Source: a virus | DNA: 36,070 bases | Strand: one strand, 5' to 3' | Virus genome (UHGV): UHGV-1528002 | Shown: positions 10,313 through 31,883 of the stretch, one piece after another | Layout of the letters: each line of letters begins with the position of its first letter | How positions within the stretch are numbered: the stretch's first letter is position 1 | The notes under the pieces: model-generated | Databases searched by the model: none | Told to the model about the DNA's origin: nothing | Seen by the model: the letters and a program-made list of their open reading frames with translations, nothing else | Translations under genes and position numbers: made by a program

Positions 10313-10698
10313 CCACTATTACCAGAGAAAACGCGGAAATTAAATCATTCATCACTGGTTTCCTGAGCGACCCGGCGCACGATAACCAATCTTCAAACAG
10401 CCTGCTTGCCAATGTGTTTCGTATTGCACTGGTATCGCTGGAAGCAAAACCAATAGGTGCATTTCACATTGCAGAACAGCAAGTTGACGGCACAAGTGAC
10501 TACATCAAGGATGGGGAGTGGCCTATTGATAATGGAATTATTGAGGTCTACGCCGCTCCACCCGTTCCAGTAGTACCGGAAGAAAAACCAATGCCTAATC
10601 CTCTTAGCATGTACGCGGTTGATGCTGTTGCTGCTATTGCAGAGGTGAGAGGCTGGAACGCCTGCCGTGCCGCTATGCTTCAGGGAAAAGGAGAGTGA
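10309..10698 (+). CDS. Hypothetical phage protein
   Basis: 129 aa; shares its first codons (ATGACCACTAT, MTTIT) with the next gene. Confidence 0.5.
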   Translation: MTTITRENAEIKSFITGFLSDPAHDNQSSNSLLANVFRIALVSLEAKPIGAFHIAEQQVDGTSDYIKDGEWPIDNGIIEVYAAPPVPVVPEEKPMPNPLSMYAVDAVAAIAEVRGWNACRAAMLQGKGE

Positions 10699-10699
10699 T

Positions 10700-11272
10700 A
10701 TGACCACTATAACCGATAAGAAACAGTATCCCAGCGATCAATATCTTAATGAGCTGATCACCAACATGGAGTTTGCTGCAAGGGCACCAGTTGAAGTCGT
10801 GAGAGTGATGGCAGCAGAGCTACAGAAGCGGCGCGAAGCTGATAGTGCAGAACCTGTAAGCCAAACTTACAACTTGCCACAAACGCACTTTGAACAGGTT
10901 GCTGACCTTTACGAAATGCAATTTGAGGATGGACGCACTTGTGCCTTTCATACTGATGCGAAAAAGGCTGCGCAATGGCTTCAGTCATGTGACGGAAACA
11001 GGGTTCAGGAATATGTGAAGCTGGAGCGGTTGCAGAACGCGCTGTCTGGCAACTCTCCGGTAACTCAGGATGGCTGGATAAGCTGTAGTGAGCGAATGCC
11101 AAACGAAGAAGATGTTTTGGTTTATTGCTCAGACACAAAAGAGCAGATGGTAGGGTTTCACAAAGGTAAAGGGTTATTTCAATTCTTTTACATGAATGGT
11201 GTTGAGGGGGTATGTGAGCCGTCACACTGGATGCCACTACCAGAACCGCCGCAGGAGGTTAACCGTGGCTAA
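10700..11272 (+). CDS. DUF551-domain phage protein
   Basis: C-terminal DGWISCSERMPNEEDVLVYC...HWMPLPEPP recalled as the DUF551 pattern; ATG 10700 behind GGAGAG RBS. Confidence 0.55.
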   Translation: MTTITDKKQYPSDQYLNELITNMEFAARAPVEVVRVMAAELQKRREADSAEPVSQTYNLPQTHFEQVADLYEMQFEDGRTCAFHTDAKKAAQWLQSCDGNRVQEYVKLERLQNALSGNSPVTQDGWISCSERMPNEEDVLVYCSDTKEQMVGFHKGKGLFQFFYMNGVEGVCEPSHWMPLPEPPQEVNRG

Positions 11273-11546
11273 CCTGCAACTTGCCGTCAAAGGTGAATAT
11301 TTCGACCAGATGAAGTCAGGCGAGAAAACGGAAGAGTATCGCCTGTGTAATGACTACTGGAATAAGCGAATTATGTTCCGGGAGTATGACCGCCTGATTA
11401 TCACAAAGGGATATCCGAAGCGCGACGATTCCTGCCGCAGAATTGACGTCCCGTATGACGGATATGAAATCAAGACAATCACACATCCGCACTTCGGTGA
11501 TAAACCGGTAAAGGTGTTCGCGATAAAGGTAAATATTGATGGCTAA
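11265..11546 (+). CDS. ASCH/DUF3850-like small protein (GTG start)
   Basis: GTG 11265 behind GGAGG RBS; LQLAVKGEYFDQMKSGEKTEEYR resembles the ASCH-fold N-terminus. Confidence 0.4.
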   Translation: MANLQLAVKGEYFDQMKSGEKTEEYRLCNDYWNKRIMFREYDRLIITKGYPKRDDSCRRIDVPYDGYEIKTITHPHFGDKPVKVFAIKVNIDG

Positions 11547-11877
11547 ATCAGCAGCAGAGCGCAAAGCCGCTCAGAGAGCCAGACAAGCTGCATCTGGTGT
11601 GCGTAAGCTGGAGATTGTGCTTGATGCTCAGGAAATTGAAATGCTGGAGCGTAACTGTGCCACACGTCGCCCCGGGCGTGCGCCTTACGAATTTGGTGAG
11701 TATATAGCGTTACTGATCCGCCAGGATGATGCACGCGTGCGCGGGCGTATAAAATCGATCAGCAGAAAACGTTGCGGTAAGTGCGGCGAGAGAGTTCCTG
11801 TGAATTCATGCCCGTGTAATGGTGACTCGCAATGCTGGGTGACTAAAGGCTGGCATGAAACGAAATTAATAGTGTGA
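11539..11877 (+). CDS. Hypothetical basic protein with C-terminal Cys4 zinc ribbon (candidate regulator)
   Basis: N-terminal basic helical segment (AERKAAQRARQAASGVRKLEIVLDAQEIEMLERN) and CGKCGERVPVNSCPC cluster; last gene before the late region. Confidence 0.45.
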   Translation: MAKSAAERKAAQRARQAASGVRKLEIVLDAQEIEMLERNCATRRPGRAPYEFGEYIALLIRQDDARVRGRIKSISRKRCGKCGERVPVNSCPCNGDSQCWVTKGWHETKLIV

Positions 11878-11885
11878 CATGTCAC
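11873..11885. repeat. Palindrome TGTGACATGTCAC, copy 1
   Basis: Perfect palindrome overlapping the stop codon of the upstream gene; same 13-mer at 14324 and 31845. Confidence 0.7.
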
Positions 11886-11894
11886 GAAGGTGTT

Positions 11895-12107
11895 ATGCCA
11901 AAAATACGCTACGACCTTGAAGATATGAGAGATAACTCAGCAAATTTTCCGAAAGAGGTTAAATTTCTCATGCATAAGTATGGTTGCGCCAGGAGGGATA
12001 TAGTTATCGACAGTCAGCACCCTTGCGGCGAGGATGTAATTTTCATTCGCGGTAAATGGGAAGGGTATCTTGACGAGAGTTTTTACGATGAATTTGATGG
12101 ACTTTGA
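11895..12107 (+). CDS. Hypothetical small protein in an AT-rich moron
   Basis: 70-aa ORF from ATG 11895 in a low-GC segment, preceded by the palindrome and followed by a terminator. Confidence 0.35.
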   Translation: MPKIRYDLEDMRDNSANFPKEVKFLMHKYGCARRDIVIDSQHPCGEDVIFIRGKWEGYLDESFYDEFDGL

Positions 12108-12112
12108 ATACT

Positions 12113-12139
12113 GCCGCCAACTATGGCGGCTTTATTTTG
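12113..12139 (+). terminator. Rho-independent terminator just upstream of the terminase genes
   Basis: GCCGCC-aactat-GGCGGC followed by TTTATTTTG. Confidence 0.6.
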
Positions 12140-12181
12140 CATGGTACTATTACCACAACGGTAACTATTACCAAGGTGGTT

Positions 12182-12778
12182 ATGATGCCTGCTGAACCTA
12201 AAACCTATAAACGCAAATCAACGCAATTTAAGCCACTAACAGCAATGCAGGAGGCTTATTGCCAGTCATACATCAAAACGCCTGAAAACCAGACTCAGGC
12301 AGCGATTAACGCAGGATTCTCCCCAAATACAGCGGCAGTTAAAGCCAGTGTCATGATGCGCGATGAACGCATTCAAAAACGGATTGCCGAGTTGATGGAG
12401 GAGCGCAACAAACGAATGCGCGTCAGTGCTGATTACGTTCTCATGCGCCTGGTGGAGATCGACCAGATGGACGTGATCGACATCCTCAACGACGATGGGA
12501 GCCTTAAACCAATCCGTGAGTGGCCGAAAATCTGGCGCACTACGCTTAGTGGCTTTGATCTGTCATCGACCATCATGAACATGAACGAGGATTCGATAGA
12601 GACAATCCTCAAAAAAATTAAATGGCCTGACAAGGTGAAGAACCTTGAGCTGATTGGTAAGCATGTTGATGTCAACGCGTTCAAAGAACGTCTGGATGTT
12701 AATGTGAATGTGACAATTGCTGATCGCATAGCAGCAGCCAGGAAGCGACTCAAAGAACGTCAGGATGGTAATCAGTGA
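12182..12778 (+). CDS. Terminase small subunit
   Basis: ATG 12182 behind AAGGTGG RBS (the track's longer ORF spans the terminator); AYCQSYIKTPENQTQAAINAGFSPNTAAVKAS matches the small-terminase pattern; overlaps the large subunit gene. Confidence 0.75.
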   Translation: MMPAEPKTYKRKSTQFKPLTAMQEAYCQSYIKTPENQTQAAINAGFSPNTAAVKASVMMRDERIQKRIAELMEERNKRMRVSADYVLMRLVEIDQMDVIDILNDDGSLKPIREWPKIWRTTLSGFDLSSTIMNMNEDSIETILKKIKWPDKVKNLELIGKHVDVNAFKERLDVNVNVTIADRIAAARKRLKERQDGNQ

Positions 12779-14250
12779 CAGATACAGCGTTATCTCCTGA
12801 AGAGCAGTTGATCGAGGATATTGCAGGGTTCACTCACGATCCGCTTGGTTATGCCCTCTATGCGTTCCCGTGGGGGGAAGAGGGGACTGAACTGGCACAT
12901 GCCACCGGTCCACGTCAGTGGCAGGCCGATGCGTTCCGAGAGATACGTGATCACCTGCAGAATCCAGAGACGCGCTATCAGCCGCTTATGCTGGCACGCG
13001 CTTCTGGTCACGGTATTGGTAAATCCGCATTCATCTCAATGCTGATCAACTGGGGCATGTCCACTTGCGAGGATTGTAAGGTCGTGGTGACCGCCAACAC
13101 CGACAACCAGCTACGAACGAAGACTTGGCCGGAAATTATCAAGTGGTCGAACCTTGCTATCACGAAAGACTGGTTTACCTGTACCGCTACCGCGATGTAC
13201 AGCAATGATCCTGGGCACGACAAGCGGTGGCGAGCTGACGCAATCCCCTGGTCTGAGCACAACACTGAGGCATTCGCCGGACTACACAACGAGCGCAAAC
13301 GCATCATCGTGGTATTCGATGAAGCGTCGAACATTGCGGATCTGGTGTGGGAAGTTGCCGAGGGTGCGCTAACGGACGAAGACACTGAGATTATCTGGGT
13401 GGCGTTCGGAAACCCGACGCGTAATACCGGACGTTTCCGCGAATGTTTCCGCAAATATAAACACCGCTGGAAAACTGCGCAGATTGACAGCCGGACGGTG
13501 GAAGGCACTAACAAACAGCAGTTGCAGAAATGGGTTGATGACTACGGGGAAGACAGCGACTTCGTTAAAATCCGTGTGCGCGGCATATTCCCGGATGCAT
13601 CTGAATTGCAGTTTATCCCTACCGGACTTACTGACGAGGCAATGAAACGGGTGGTCACCGCTGCGCAGGTTGCACATGCTCCGGTGATAATCGGCGTTGA
13701 CCCGGCATACTCAGGCGTTGATGATGCGGTGATATACCTGCGGCAGGGGCTGCACAGTAAGGTGCTGTGGACCGGCAACAAGACCACTGACGATCTGATT
13801 ATGGCAAAGCGTATCGCTGACTTTGAAGACCAGTATCAGGCTGACGCGGTGTTCATCGACTTCGGTTACGGAACTGGTCTGAAGTCAATCGGTGACGGCT
13901 GGGGTCGTACATGGCAACTTGTTCCGTTCGGTGGCGCGTCTACTGACCCGCAGATGCTCAATAAGCGCGGGGAGATGTTCAACTCATGCAAGACGTGGCT
14001 GAGGCTGGGCGGCATGCTTGATGACCAGGAAACAGCGGACGACCTGTCGGCGGCAGAGTACAAAGTTCGAGTGGACGGTAAAATCGTTATCGAACCGAAG
14101 GAAGATATCAAGGAGCGGCTTGGGCGTTCTCCTGGTAAAGGCGATGCGCTACTGCTGACGTTTGCGTTCCCTGTGTCGAAGCGTCTGCGAATTCCCGGGC
14201 AGCAGAACCAGCAAGGCAAGGCCATCACAGATTACGATCCATATGCTTAA
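12775..14250 (+). CDS. Terminase large subunit
   Basis: 491 aa; ATPase region (ARASGHGIGKS, VVFDEASN) and C-terminal nuclease region; position next to the small subunit. Confidence 0.85.
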   Translation: MTDTALSPEEQLIEDIAGFTHDPLGYALYAFPWGEEGTELAHATGPRQWQADAFREIRDHLQNPETRYQPLMLARASGHGIGKSAFISMLINWGMSTCEDCKVVVTANTDNQLRTKTWPEIIKWSNLAITKDWFTCTATAMYSNDPGHDKRWRADAIPWSEHNTEAFAGLHNERKRIIVVFDEASNIADLVWEVAEGALTDEDTEIIWVAFGNPTRNTGRFRECFRKYKHRWKTAQIDSRTVEGTNKQQLQKWVDDYGEDSDFVKIRVRGIFPDASELQFIPTGLTDEAMKRVVTAAQVAHAPVIIGVDPAYSGVDDAVIYLRQGLHSKVLWTGNKTTDDLIMAKRIADFEDQYQADAVFIDFGYGTGLKSIGDGWGRTWQLVPFGGASTDPQMLNKRGEMFNSCKTWLRLGGMLDDQETADDLSAAEYKVRVDGKIVIEPKEDIKERLGRSPGKGDALLLTFAFPVSKRLRIPGQQNQQGKAITDYDPYA

Positions 14251-14300: not shown

Positions 14301-14323
14301 AGCCAGCTCATCGGCTGGCTGTT
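14301..14323. terminator. Bidirectional terminator-like hairpin between convergent genes
   Basis: AGCCAGC-tcatcg-GCTGGCT; T-rich tract on the minus strand (TTTGTTTTAT) and GTTTG on the plus strand. Confidence 0.5.
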
Positions 14324-14336
14324 TGTGACATGTCAC
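14324..14336. repeat. Palindrome TGTGACATGTCAC, copy 2
   Basis: Identical 13-mer; shares the extended flank ...GTCACG-GTGTTA with copy 1. Confidence 0.7.
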
Positions 14337-14340
14337 GGTG

Positions 14341-14760
14341 TTACTTAATGGCATTAAATCCAGCGTTGATGGCTTCCGCAATATTGATGGCACTTGTTTT
14401 ATCGAAGTGCCCATTCTGAATAAGCGCCGCATGCAGGCATTGTAACTTCATGTTGTATAAGTGTTCGCTCATGTAATCATGATCACTTTTTGCTTTAGCG
14501 TAAACAGCGCGAGAAATATCAAACATATCGCCTTTTTCCATTTCAGAACGTTGTGCTGTTATCCAGTCATGGAACGTAACGCTAGTACCATGGTCTTCGC
14601 TAAGAGTTAACCCGGCCAGTCCCTCACTCTGAATTACTTCGTAATGCATTTCATTACCAGCAAAAACGCCATAAAAAACGCAGTCTTCAGCCTGAACGAT
14701 ACGAGAATATTTTAATGGCCATTCATTTAGATACTTAGCCAACATATCAATTGTCTTCAT
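14341..14760 (-). CDS. Hypothetical protein (inverted moron between terminase and portal)
   Basis: 139-aa ORF opposite to the flanking late genes; AAGGTGAG RBS directly after a terminator hairpin. Confidence 0.5.
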   Translation of the reverse strand: MKTIDMLAKYLNEWPLKYSRIVQAEDCVFYGVFAGNEMHYEVIQSEGLAGLTLSEDHGTSVTFHDWITAQRSEMEKGDMFDISRAVYAKAKSDHDYMSEHLYNMKLQCLHAALIQNGHFDKTSAINIAEAINAGFNAIK

Positions 14761-15684: not shown

Positions 15685-17364
15685 ATGGCGGAAACAACTA
15701 AAGAGCGATTGAACAAACAGTTCGCACAACTTGAAAGCGAGCGTCAGTCGTTCGAGCCGCACTGGCGCGAGTTGAGTGATTACATCAACCCACGTGGTTC
15801 CCGCTTTCTGACTTCTGAGGTCAACCGTAACGATCGACGCAATACACGCATTATTGATTCGACCGGGACTATGGCGGCGCGCACTCTCGCCAGCGGCATG
15901 ATGTCAGGCATCACAAGCCCCGCGCGTCCGTGGTTTCGCCTGGCTACGCCAGATCCTGAAATGATGGATTATGGCCCTGTTAAGTTGTGGCTTGAGGCGG
16001 TGCAGAACCGCATGAACGATATGTTCAATAAGTCGAATCTCTACCAGTCTCTTCCGCAGTTATACGGAAGCCTCGGCACATACAGCACCGGTGCAATGGC
16101 GGTACTGGAGGATGACGAGGACATCATTCGCACAATGCCATTCCCGATAGGCAGTTACTACCTGGCTAACTCACCTCGTGGCAGTGTGGACACCTGTTTT
16201 CGCAAGTTCTCTATGACCGTTCGTCAGCTTGTTCAGGAGTTCGGGCTAAATAACGTCAGCGAATCCGTAAAAAGCATGTGGGAAAGCGGCACCTACGAGA
16301 AGTGGATTGAAGTGATGCATTCGGTTTACCCGAACATTGACCGCGATACATCGAAGCTGGATAGCAAGAACAAGCCATTCAAATCGGTTTATTACGAGGT
16401 TGGCGGTGATAACGACAAGTTGTTGCGTGAGTCCGGATTCGATGAGTTTCCAATTATGGCTCCGCGCTGGGAAGTTAATGGCGAAGATGTTTATGGATCA
16501 TCATGCCCGGGTATGCTGGCGCTTGGACCTGTTAAGGCATTGCAGCTTCTCCAGAAGCGCAAGTCGCAGTTGATTGATAAAGCCACCAATCCGCCGATGG
16601 TTGCTCCGACTTCCCTCAAGAATCAGCGCGCCTCCCTTCTTCCTGGCGACATCACGTATATCGATCAGATTACTGGTCAGGATGGATTCAGGCCTGCTTA
16701 TCTGGTTAACCCCAGTACAGCAGATTTGGTGGCAGACATTCAGGACACTCGTCAAATCATTAACAGCGCCTACTTTGTCGATCTGTTCATGATGTTGCAG
16801 AACATCAATACCCGCTCGATGCCTGTTGAAGCGGTGATCGAAATGAAAGAAGAAAAACTTCTGATGTTGGGGCCGGTTCTGGAGCGTCTGAACGACGAAT
16901 GTCTTAATCCTCTCATTGACCGCGCTTTCTCGATGATGGTGCGTAAAAACATGCTGCCGCCACCGCCTGACGCGATGGAAGGCATGCCCCTGAAGGTCGA
17001 ATACATTTCCGTCATGGCTCAGGCGCAGAAGTCTATCGGCCTGTCCAGTCTGGCGTCCACGGTTAACTTCATTGGTCAACTTGCGCAAGCGAAACCAGAA
17101 GCTCTCGACAAACTCAACGTTGATCAGGCGATCGATGCATTCGCTGATATGTCCGGAGTGTCTCCAACCGTCATTGTTCCGCAGGAACAGGTTGAGCAGG
17201 CTCGCCAGCAACGGGCACAGCAGCAACAGCAGCAACAAATGATGGCGATGGGGATGGCGGCGGCACAGGGTGTCAAGACGCTAAGTGAAGCTAAAACTTC
17301 GGATCCGAGTGTGTTGTCAGCTATGGCGAATGCAGTTAGTGGTCAGGGTGGGCAATCACAATGA
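15685..17364 (+). CDS. Portal (head-to-tail connector) protein, T7 gp8-like
   Basis: 559 aa; Gln-rich C-terminus QQRAQQQQQQQMMAMGMAAAQG parallels the T7 gp8 C-terminus; followed by scaffold and capsid genes. Confidence 0.8.
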   Translation: MAETTKERLNKQFAQLESERQSFEPHWRELSDYINPRGSRFLTSEVNRNDRRNTRIIDSTGTMAARTLASGMMSGITSPARPWFRLATPDPEMMDYGPVKLWLEAVQNRMNDMFNKSNLYQSLPQLYGSLGTYSTGAMAVLEDDEDIIRTMPFPIGSYYLANSPRGSVDTCFRKFSMTVRQLVQEFGLNNVSESVKSMWESGTYEKWIEVMHSVYPNIDRDTSKLDSKNKPFKSVYYEVGGDNDKLLRESGFDEFPIMAPRWEVNGEDVYGSSCPGMLALGPVKALQLLQKRKSQLIDKATNPPMVAPTSLKNQRASLLPGDITYIDQITGQDGFRPAYLVNPSTADLVADIQDTRQIINSAYFVDLFMMLQNINTRSMPVEAVIEMKEEKLLMLGPVLERLNDECLNPLIDRAFSMMVRKNMLPPPPDAMEGMPLKVEYISVMAQAQKSIGLSSLASTVNFIGQLAQAKPEALDKLNVDQAIDAFADMSGVSPTVIVPQEQVEQARQQRAQQQQQQQMMAMGMAAAQGVKTLSEAKTSDPSVLSAMANAVSGQGGQSQ

Positions 17365-17657
17365 CAGATTACGAAGACGATCAACTGAAAGAAGAAAACG
17401 CCCGTAAGCAACGTGACATGGCACAGCGTGAAATTGATGACATTCGCTTTGTCATGAGCAGTGAACAGGGGCGTCGCGTTGTCTGGTCGGTGCTGGAGAA
17501 AGGCCGTGTGTTTTCCGCTATCTCTCCGATGGATGCTATGGCAATGGCATTTAATGAGGGGCAACGCAATCTGGCGCTGGAACTGTTTCAGCGCGTTATG
17601 GCGCATTGCCCTGAACAGTATTTGAAGATGGCCAAAGAGGCCAGTGAACAGGAGTGA
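17361..17657 (+). CDS. Hypothetical head-module protein
   Basis: 98-aa ORF with ATGA overlap to portal; no recognised domain. Confidence 0.45.
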   Translation: MTDYEDDQLKEENARKQRDMAQREIDDIRFVMSSEQGRRVVWSVLEKGRVFSAISPMDAMAMAFNEGQRNLALELFQRVMAHCPEQYLKMAKEASEQE

Positions 17658-31552: not shown

Positions 31553-31849
31553 ATGCAAGCGATAGGATTCATTGTTTATATCGTCGTTGGTCTTTTTCAG
31601 TTGGCAGCAATTATGGCTGGGCTTGAATCATGGTGGGGATTGCACTGGATAATTGCAGCCCCCATTGCTTTCATCGTGAGCTATATTCCATTTGTTGGAG
31701 CGATTGTTGGTATGGTTGGCGCTGTGGATGTATGGCGGTGGGAGTGGTGGCAGGCTGGCCTTCTCTTCTTTGGTGGGATCATCTTTGCTATTGTCTGCGG
31801 TGGAATGTCATCATTTTTCGAATGGCTATCATTCAGAAAAAGAGTGTGA
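31553..31849 (+). CDS. Small integral membrane protein (3 predicted TM helices)
   Basis: 98 aa with three hydrophobic stretches and a basic C-terminus (FRKRV); AGGTGA RBS. Confidence 0.5.
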   Translation: MQAIGFIVYIVVGLFQLAAIMAGLESWWGLHWIIAAPIAFIVSYIPFVGAIVGMVGAVDVWRWEWWQAGLLFFGGIIFAIVCGGMSSFFEWLSFRKRV

Positions 31850-31858
31850 CATGTCACA
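31845..31858. repeat. Palindrome TGTGACATGTCACA, copy 3
   Basis: Perfect 14-bp palindrome overlapping the stop codon of the membrane-protein gene. Confidence 0.7.
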
Positions 31859-31883
31859 GGCCGCTTTCGCGGCCTTGTTTTTT
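31859..31883 (+). terminator. Rho-independent terminator ending the rightward late/accessory operon
   Basis: GGCCGC-tttc-GCGGCC followed by TTGTTTTTT. Confidence 0.65.

Follow-up and report, generated by a model that had tools for sequence, protein, structure and literature searches.

A ribbon-helix-helix-zinc protein and a dispersed palindrome, its probable operator, at transcription-unit ends of an epsilon15/phiV10-type temperate phage

The stretch of viral DNA analysed here (UHGV virus genome UHGV-1528002, 36,070 nucleotides; hereafter the window) is most of an epsilon15 (eps15)/phiV10-type temperate podophage of the genus Uetakevirus. Upstream of its terminase genes it encodes a 112-aa protein in which a ribbon-helix-helix (RHH) domain was recognised ahead of a Cys4 module (hereafter the RHH-zinc protein). 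The gene is linked to the palindrome GTGAC-N2-GTCAC, which is probably the operator of its product. Three copies of the palindrome mark the 3' ends of the early-right, terminase and structural units of the window, and each lies beside an intrinsic terminator. Tentatively, and short of calling it probable, we favour a dimeric protein acting at this operator as a unit-boundary factor, with the terminase promoter lying beyond the first of these terminators (T1).

RHH regulators as such are familiar. The novelty lies in an RHH and zinc-module family with a probable operator that is dispersed, resembles the matS site of MatP, and is linked to the 3' end of the gene across very different temperate phages and phage-plasmids. 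No paper was found in the literature searched that mentions the palindrome, a "matS-like" site in this sense or a function of the RHH-zinc protein, and the palindrome sites are unannotated in the phiV10 and eps15 records.

Gene, protein family and predicted fold

11539–11877, plus strand: RHH-zinc gene, 112 aa (ATG 11539 to TGA 11877), of the eps15 gp49/phiV10 gp55/N15 gp46 family, PHROG 536

Gene order in the window is the same as in the RefSeq genomes of phiV10 and eps15 (integrase, leftward early genes, repressor, rightward early/nin-like genes, terminase). In those two phages the rightward early block closes with an ASCH-domain gene and a 112-aa "transcriptional regulator", followed by terS and terL. 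A 1.1-kb query around the locus was 95–98% identical to phiV10, TL-2011b, O157 typing phages 9 and 10, and others.

The first-pass annotation of this DNA had described a 112-aa Cys protein with a basic N-terminus starting at 11539. That open reading frame (ORF) was recovered together with its basic N-terminus (MAKSAAERKAAQRARQ) and, in the C-terminal part, residues 79–93 (CGKCGERVPVNSCPC). An alternative in-frame TTG at 11536 would give 113 aa, and the gene shares its first 8 nt with the end of the ASCH-like gene upstream. A PHROGs search returned a full-length match to PHROG 536, "transcriptional regulator" (E = 1.6e-54, residues 1–111), while Pfam and NCBIfam returned nothing above threshold. 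The protein is 96–99% identical to phiV10-type homologues, 77% to eps15 gp49 and 35% to the product of N15 gene 46. The family is small (726 clusters at 90% identity, 154 representatives at 50%), and nearly all members have 105–135 aa. Many distant members, from Serratia, Pseudomonas and Vibrio, lie on contigs of ~41–46 kb that also carry ParA-like proteins and a lambda-type terminase, one of them annotated as a plasmid; given these contigs, the family seems especially common in phage-plasmids.

In a diverse family alignment, conservation was found in a basic RK..QR.R segment, a G....E..L strand, a PY...EY...LI segment and then CxxC...P..C.G...G...C. Judged by conservation, the zinc ligands are C79 and C82 (invariant), C99 (nearly so) and a fourth Cys at 91 or 93. 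The Cys4 zinc ribbon of the first-pass annotation thus holds as a Cys4 module, with these ligands instead of the "CGKC...CPC" four.

An AlphaFold2 model built with 22 close homologues reached a mean predicted local distance difference test (pLDDT) of 64 and was discarded; with a 54-sequence alignment the pLDDT was 94. The retained model places a basic helix at residues 5–19, an extended ribbon at 20–29, helices at 30–42 and 52–74, the Cys4 module at 79–99 and a last helix at 100–108. Its strand and two helices superpose on solved RHH domains, and MatP was among the structural matches. Foldseek returned no match below E = 1 against the PDB and a fragment of the protein's own family only against BFVD, and HMMER with the single protein returned no match among PDB sequences. 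Curated RHH models matched below threshold only (NF008671, YbfE, E 0.052; RHH_5, E 0.013 in 2 of 54 members; RepB-RCR_reg, E 0.028).

On the strength of the predicted model, the RHH domain is regarded as established and the protein as probably a sequence-specific DNA-binding protein. The model is of a monomer; the linked 12-bp palindrome is consistent with, and not proof of, an RHH dimer on a symmetric operator. From other RHH proteins (Arc/MetJ/CopG, including P22 Arc and Mnt) the protein differs by a long predicted inter-helix loop (43–51) and the added C-terminal Cys4 module, and its putative operators, instead of being grouped at a promoter, are dispersed at gene and unit ends. Its score stays below threshold for every Pfam RHH model.

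A search of PDB sequences with the family profile returned three weak matches, all of them DksA/TraR zinc-finger proteins (YbiI, E 0.025; TraR, E 0.04–0.044; residues 48–110). The hhalign probability was 74% against TraR, 67% against a small TraR/YbiI/DksA profile (~60 residues) and 1.4% against MatP. The TraR search gave close TraR relatives only, and the TraR-side profile is therefore shallow. Features shared with TraR, DksA and YbiI are a long helix, CxxC, a loop with conserved Pro and Gly, a further Cys and a C-terminal helix. In place of the CxxC-N17-CxxC pattern of TraR/DksA, the protein has C79-x2-C82-x16-C99 with Thr at the fourth position, and Pfam gave no PF01258 match in 54 family members. 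The segment aligned with the acidic DxxDxA-type tip reads PYEFGEY, with 45 residues of RHH domain before it. The zinc module may thus be weakly TraR/DksA-like.

The palindrome and its linkage to the gene

11874–11885, unstranded: site A, GTGACATGTCAC, a probable operator; contains the TGA stop of the RHH-zinc gene; end of the early-right unit
14325–14336, unstranded: site B, GTGACATGTCAC; abuts terminator T2 at the convergent junction of terL and a minus-strand gene (14341–14760)
31846–31857, unstranded: site C, GTGACATGTCAC, a 14-bp palindrome with its flanks; overlaps the stop of the last structural-unit gene (31553–31849)

The first of these sites had been listed in the first-pass annotation as a palindrome copy following the gene; it overlaps the stop codon and became the main result. 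Within the window the palindrome has 4 matches at ≤1 mismatch, against 0.15 expected, and GTGACNNGTCAC has 3, against 0.00 in shuffles. All three sites occur in syntenic positions in eps15 (39612, 2142 and 19517) and in phiV10, where the copy at the record junction has 1 mismatch, although the flanking DNA differs. The palindrome is kept in 73 of 74 close relatives. These relatives were taken from IMG/VR (88–100% identical) and served for the ORF70 polymorphism described below; the set is unsuited to covariation.

The linkage reaches well beyond the genus. In the Pectobacterium myovirus ZF40, which encodes a 67%-identical protein on an unrelated backbone, TGTGACATGTCACA lies 2 nt past the homologue's stop, and two further copies are present. 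Of 49 N15-like loci (protein 35% identical), 46 have a site that runs into the stop codon; the sites number 110 in all against 0.87 expected, and a second copy lies 4–7 kb upstream of the gene, in N15 itself inside repA. Two Pseudomonas elements, whose proteins are ~32% identical, each have a site overlapping the stop codon and further copies. Up to 10 kb away from the gene, two or three copies each were found in Vibrio and Serratia elements and in another contig with a λ-type terminase; two of the Serratia copies fall where genes converge, between their stop codons. Of all ORFs of the window, the RHH-zinc gene alone has homologues in the compared ZF40, N15 and Vibrio loci.

In order to control for spacing, GTGAC-Nk-GTCAC was counted in 15 family-bearing loci (293 kb in total). 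For k = 0 to 7 the counts were 1, 1, 26, 0, 0, 0, 0 and 1, and the inverted order of half-sites occurred 0–1 times. The half-sites are invariant and the central dinucleotide varies (AT, TG, CA, GG, CC, AC, GC, CG and GT). Given that only the N2 spacing is enriched while the half-sites stay fixed and the centre varies, the palindrome is better read as the operator of a dimeric protein than as an RNA hairpin. By this comparison, GTGAC-N2-GTCAC is very probably the operator of the RHH-zinc protein, and gene and palindrome would form a portable module, usually with one site at or overlapping the gene's own stop and one to three more elsewhere in the genome. No exact site was found in 4 of the 15 loci, within the DNA at hand. 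In a reverse search with TGTGACATGTCACA in viral contigs, the gene was present in 20 of 80 loci among the matches listed, the loci being short. Likewise among the matches listed, 46 of 83 site contexts were without similarity to references, which is neutral on linkage.

Further copies and variants were observed beside this pattern. A one-mismatch copy, GTGACATGGCAC, lies at 17413–17424 inside a structural-region ORF (17361–17657), and its equivalent is kept in phiV10 (5306); this copy may act as a fourth, weak site or be mere coding sequence. The phiV10 record NC_007804.2 (L004) is linearised within the palindrome, at 39104/1 (GTGTGA|CATGTTAC), and its "terminator" feature is a single base at 39104, the real hairpin lying at ~70–100 of the record. 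The second copy of N15 (~33238, L143) lies ~0.6 kb into repA (gene 37), a position shared by a Citrobacter N15-like element (L273), and some N15-like phages have a third copy 9–10 kb upstream of the gene. In ZF40-like phages (ZF40 itself, L011, at 5125 and 7622; also L191, L193, L212 and L215), two copies ~2.1–2.5 kb apart bracket the cI/cro/cII immunity region, both within coding sequence (gp08 and the 3' end of a cII-like gene). Aeromonas phage 85AhydR10PP (L146) has a variant repeat, GTGACCGGACAC, at 230 and 2882, one copy being 14 bp upstream of the homologue's start; the repeat may be a diverged operator, two copies not being statistically secure. On a metagenomic contig (L144, 1324–1380; P0166) with a 39%-identical homologue, the half-sites are split just past the stop into GCGTGACCGGA and, ~30 nt on, TCCGGTCACGC, which form a long inverted repeat and no compact site.

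Site positions and terminators

12113–12139, plus strand: terminator T1, stem GCCGCCA/TGGCGGC at 12113–12130 with loop ACTA, then TTTATTTTG
14302–14324, unstranded: terminator T2, after terL, GCCAGC..GCTGGC then TGTTT; usable in both directions and annotated in phiV10
31859–31883, plus strand: terminator T3, GGCCGC-TTTC-GCGGCC then TTGTTTTTT, 1 nt past site C

Placement at gene ends was found for all three sites in three Uetakevirus genomes and for the two sites in the part of a Klebsiella phage that was compared. A terminator adjoins every Uetakevirus and Klebsiella site except Klebsiella site A, which overlaps the gene's stop with no T1-type hairpin visible; Klebsiella site B is arranged as in the window. 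Sites A and B are 2.45 kb apart and bracket the terminase operon. Site B sits between T2 and the 3' end of the convergent gene at 14341–14760, and beyond site C the genes are likewise convergent.

The strong terminator called at 12113–12139 in the first-pass annotation was borne out: the 7-bp stem has 6 G-C pairs, and the fold is at −19.1 kcal/mol (z = −3.8). T1 is identical in TL-2011b and typing phage 9 (both without ORF70) and in 74 of 74 close relatives, and the eps15 record carries an annotated variant. T1 closes the early-right unit and is a feature of the backbone with or without ORF70.

In the two Pseudomonas elements, a Q-type late leader was observed (L269, 10387–10671; L274, 6035–6332). 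It runs from a near-consensus sigma-70 promoter (TTGACA-17-TATCTT in L269) through ~150–200 nt and two strong terminators to a holin gene.

Terminase promoter and repressor operators

12185–14250, plus strand: terS (12185–12778; Terminase_2, E 1e-29) and terL (12775–14250), bracketed by sites A and B
12142–12150, plus strand: putative extended −10 promoter, TGgTACTAT, read from the sequence
12149–12165 and 12167–12183, unstranded: two tandem repressor-type operators of the ATTACC-N5-GGTAAT type
135, 5157, 5219, 5931, 6316, 8262, 8324, 12149, 12167, 15358, 32833, 33877, 33970 and 35090: positions of ATTACC-N5-GGTAAT
30095 and 31233: further ATTACC-N5-GGTAAT matches with 2 mismatches

The extended −10 element is kept as TGtTACTAT in eps15 and TGgTATTAT in the Klebsiella phage. 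The tandem operators overlap this putative promoter, the terS ribosome-binding site and the start codon. At ≤2 mismatches, ATTACC-N5-GGTAAT has 16 matches in the window against 0.72 expected; these are often paired, 60–90 bp apart, and lie ahead of the terminase genes, portal/structural genes and other units. The eps15 RefSeq record annotates the equivalent as a repressor operator, with copies before terS, gp3 and the tailspike gene. The distribution suggests that most promoters of the phage are directly controlled by the prophage repressor.

The first-pass annotation had held that late transcription must either pass T1 or start beyond it. A start beyond is favoured by the conserved extended −10 element and the operators: late and terminase transcription most probably begins past T1, at this putative promoter and under direct repressor control. 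The distance from site A to it is ~60 bp in eps15, 80 bp in phiV10-type phages, 265 bp in the window phage and ~450 bp in the Klebsiella phage.

Two ways of joining the palindrome to terminase transcription were considered and rejected. As a class-I activator site of the terminase promoter, it would stand at varying, out-of-phase distances, with a terminator or inserted gene in between. Use of the GTGACA half as a −35 hexamer works in eps15 only (GTGACA-17-TAAATT) and is not conserved.

Possible roles of the protein at its sites

In the reading that we tentatively favour, the RHH-zinc protein would be a boundary factor of the delayed-early phase that works in either orientation. Its dimers on the DNA would keep transcription units apart as roadblocks or insulators, possibly bridged via the zinc module. 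Terminase transcription would begin downstream of T1 at the extended −10 promoter, under direct control of the prophage repressor, and ORF70 would be an optional accessory gene in an insertion slot between operator A and T1. A boundary role covers most of the site positions. Roadblock terminators are known from eukaryotes (Reb1/TTF-I), mitochondria (mTERF) and bacteria (repressor roadblocks). By analogy, the phage protein would share with these factors a sequence-specific binding at unit ends beside T-rich release elements; it has no homology to them. We know of no dedicated phage-encoded roadblock factor that is paired with intrinsic terminators.

Several observations weigh against a boundary role. 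The link between protein and site comes from comparison of genomes, and no exact motif was found in the DNA at hand of the Yersinia P2-like element (6.3 kb) or the P0161 contig (15 kb); the Vibrio locus L270 has near-matches only, and Aeromonas a variant repeat. Intragenic sites (N15 repA; ZF40 gp08 and cII-like gene) fit roadblocks or looping and not "unit ends". Each of the three junctions has an intrinsic terminator as it is, which makes a further roadblock look redundant, and a protein on site B would stall plus-strand RNA polymerase ahead of the T-tract. A −35/−10 consensus scan found no promoter at the extended −10 element, which was recognised by reading the sequence alone. The possible TraR/DksA kinship and the Q-like position of the gene in the Pseudomonas elements point to action on RNA polymerase.

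Such action would refine an idea of the first-pass annotation, which had made the protein a candidate late-gene regulator in the absence of Q. The RHH domain would tether it to GTGAC-N2-GTCAC while the zinc module engages RNA polymerase, and terminator read-through or late-promoter activation would replace Q. Parts of the case for this hold: the protein probably binds DNA, it occupies the position of Q, its gene being the conserved early gene nearest to the late or lysis genes in Uetakeviruses as well as in elements of Pseudomonas, Vibrio and Serratia, and no Q-like protein is annotated in phiV10 or eps15. In L269 and L274, the two Pseudomonas elements, ~60 bp separate the stop-overlapping site from a consensus promoter downstream, after which come two terminators and the holin gene; no match to a Q-like family was found for the neighbouring ORFs. 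Residues 45–108 align to TraR/YbiI/DksA (profile E 0.025–0.04, hhalign probability 67–74%), and in the window T1 is preceded by site A and T3, at a distance of 1 nt, by site C. The protein would resemble lambdoid Q in its place as last conserved early gene, in predicted DNA binding together with a zinc-binding element, and, in the Pseudomonas relatives, in lying just upstream of a promoter with terminators in its leader. It differs in that no sequence or fold similarity to Q was found, in a site outside the promoter and in the coexistence of its family with Q. Annotated Q-like antiterminators occur together with the family in N15, ZF40 and the Citrobacter N15-like element, and therefore the family is not a general Q replacement. 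No match to Q families was found for the RHH-zinc protein in Pfam, PHROGs or NCBIfam. A Q site would lie within a late promoter that a terminator follows; site A is upstream of both T1 and the putative promoter. Genes converge at sites B and C, so that activation or read-through there would make no sense; site A is ~60 to ~450 bp away from the terminase promoter, depending on the phage, and some sites are intragenic (N15 repA; ZF40 gp08, cII-like). The terminase genes also have their own conserved putative extended −10 promoter and two repressor operators beyond T1. We consider late regulation in place of Q unlikely, and a Q-like late activator less likely in the window phage than a boundary or architectural role. 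Quite unlikely, in our estimate, is a new late-gene switch in which a DNA-tethered TraR/DksA relative would alter termination at nearby intrinsic terminators, as a Q substitute in Q-less temperate phages and phage-plasmids.

The architectural role takes its model from MatP. The matS site has been given as GTGAC[AG]N[TC]GTCAC (PMC3603311). In its 13-bp form, GTGACRNYGTCAC, it shares with the phage palindrome the GTGAC/GTCAC half-sites, the degenerate centre and the occurrence of several dispersed sites per replicon, with RHH-based recognition putative here; the spacer is 2 bp in the phage operator and 3 bp in matS. On this account, dimers at dispersed palindromes would associate via the zinc module and loop or pair phage DNA, and transcription would not be the primary target. 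Bridging would isolate modules such as the terminase operon, or the immunity region in ZF40-like phages, and it is in these positions that site pairs ~2.1–2.5 kb apart are found. The operator is matS minus one central base. Exact matS has no match in the window, however, and in the 293 kb of family loci no N3 (true matS) site was found against 26 N2 sites. Sequence homology to MatP is lacking (hhalign 1.4%), as are its four-helix bundle and coiled coil; only one N-terminal helix is predicted, and a zinc module takes the place of the coiled coil. The family also occurs in Pseudomonas, from which, to our knowledge, MatP is absent. The need of a lytic-cycle phage for such loops is unexplained, and oligomerisation by the zinc module is hypothetical. 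A MatP-like function taken by itself is doubtful, and a bridging role is a close alternative to the boundary reading.

A last account would make the palindromes unrelated to the protein, as RNA hairpins of the terminators, as sequences of recombination or of module boundaries, or as host-factor targets, with the adjacency reflecting shared segment ancestry. Every Uetakevirus copy abuts a terminator, the near-match of Vibrio L270 scored with its flanks as a terminator-like hairpin, and the protein–motif link is comparative. However, the half-sites are invariant across proteins that are 31–35% identical and hosts from Escherichia to Pseudomonas and Vibrio, in unrelated flanks. Compensatory stem changes are absent, and a 5-bp stem with a 2-nt loop cannot form. 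N2 spacing alone is enriched, and the RHH-zinc gene is the sole shared gene. We know of no host factor of Enterobacterales, Vibrio and Pseudomonas that recognises GTGAC-N2-GTCAC. The RNA-hairpin version was rejected in view of the invariant half-sites, the impossible loop and the strict spacer specificity, and the account as a whole is very unlikely.

ORF70 and the cargo slot

11895–12107, plus strand: ORF70, 70 aa (ATG 11895 to TGA 12107), homologue of T4 UvsY.-1, PHROG 1541

The low-GC 70-aa ORF of the first-pass annotation was confirmed, with a GC content of 0.41–0.43 against about 0.49–0.53 in the flanks. Its product is 49–56% identical to UvsY.-1 across hundreds of T-even phages. Among the close relatives, 25 of 74 have the long form and 49 of 74 a short form, which is a 186-bp in-frame deletion that keeps the first 4 and last 23 nt (ATGC|ATGATGAATTTGATGGGTTTTGA). 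A ribosome-binding site is present, and a promoter scan of 10500–13000 returned no promoter-like site and none for ORF70.

ORF70 had been described as a moron with a terminator. Variable presence, atypical composition and foreign origin agree with a moron; its own promoter and its own terminator were not found, T1 being identical in 74 of 74 relatives with or without ORF70 and present as a variant in eps15. The first-pass annotation had also called the RHH-zinc gene the last early gene. It is the last conserved one, at the end of the early-right operon, and ORF70 is the last before the terminator in the window. ORF70 is an optional T4-type accessory gene between site A and T1.

In the Klebsiella phage ST11-OXA245phi3.2 (L147, 8279–8745), the ORF70 slot holds a UmuD-like gene with a TTGACT −35 hexamer and a LexA box (TACTGTTTAAATATACAGTA); given its own promoter and LexA box, this gene is a true SOS-regulated moron. 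No T1-type terminator is visible in that slot ahead of the terminase promoter. Since the slot between site A and the terminase promoter holds a UmuD-like gene in Klebsiella and ORF70 here, it is a cargo insertion point.

Implications

Epsilon15-type phages include many Salmonella, E. coli and Klebsiella prophages, and late-gene control in the group is unexplained; phiV10 serves in reporter assays for E. coli O157. For annotation, the backbone parts of the junction (terminator, promoter and operators) can be set apart from cargo, which is ORF70 here and the UmuD-like gene in Klebsiella. A vague idea of a regulator has been turned into testable alternatives, namely roadblock, bridging and action on RNA polymerase. 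The one-base difference from host matS raises the question of crosstalk with MatP or its avoidance. Protein and putative operator move together among unrelated temperate phages and phage-plasmids of Enterobacterales, Vibrio and Pseudomonas, and a fold and a precise candidate operator are now assigned to a widespread protein that has been annotated as hypothetical or as a generic "transcriptional regulator".

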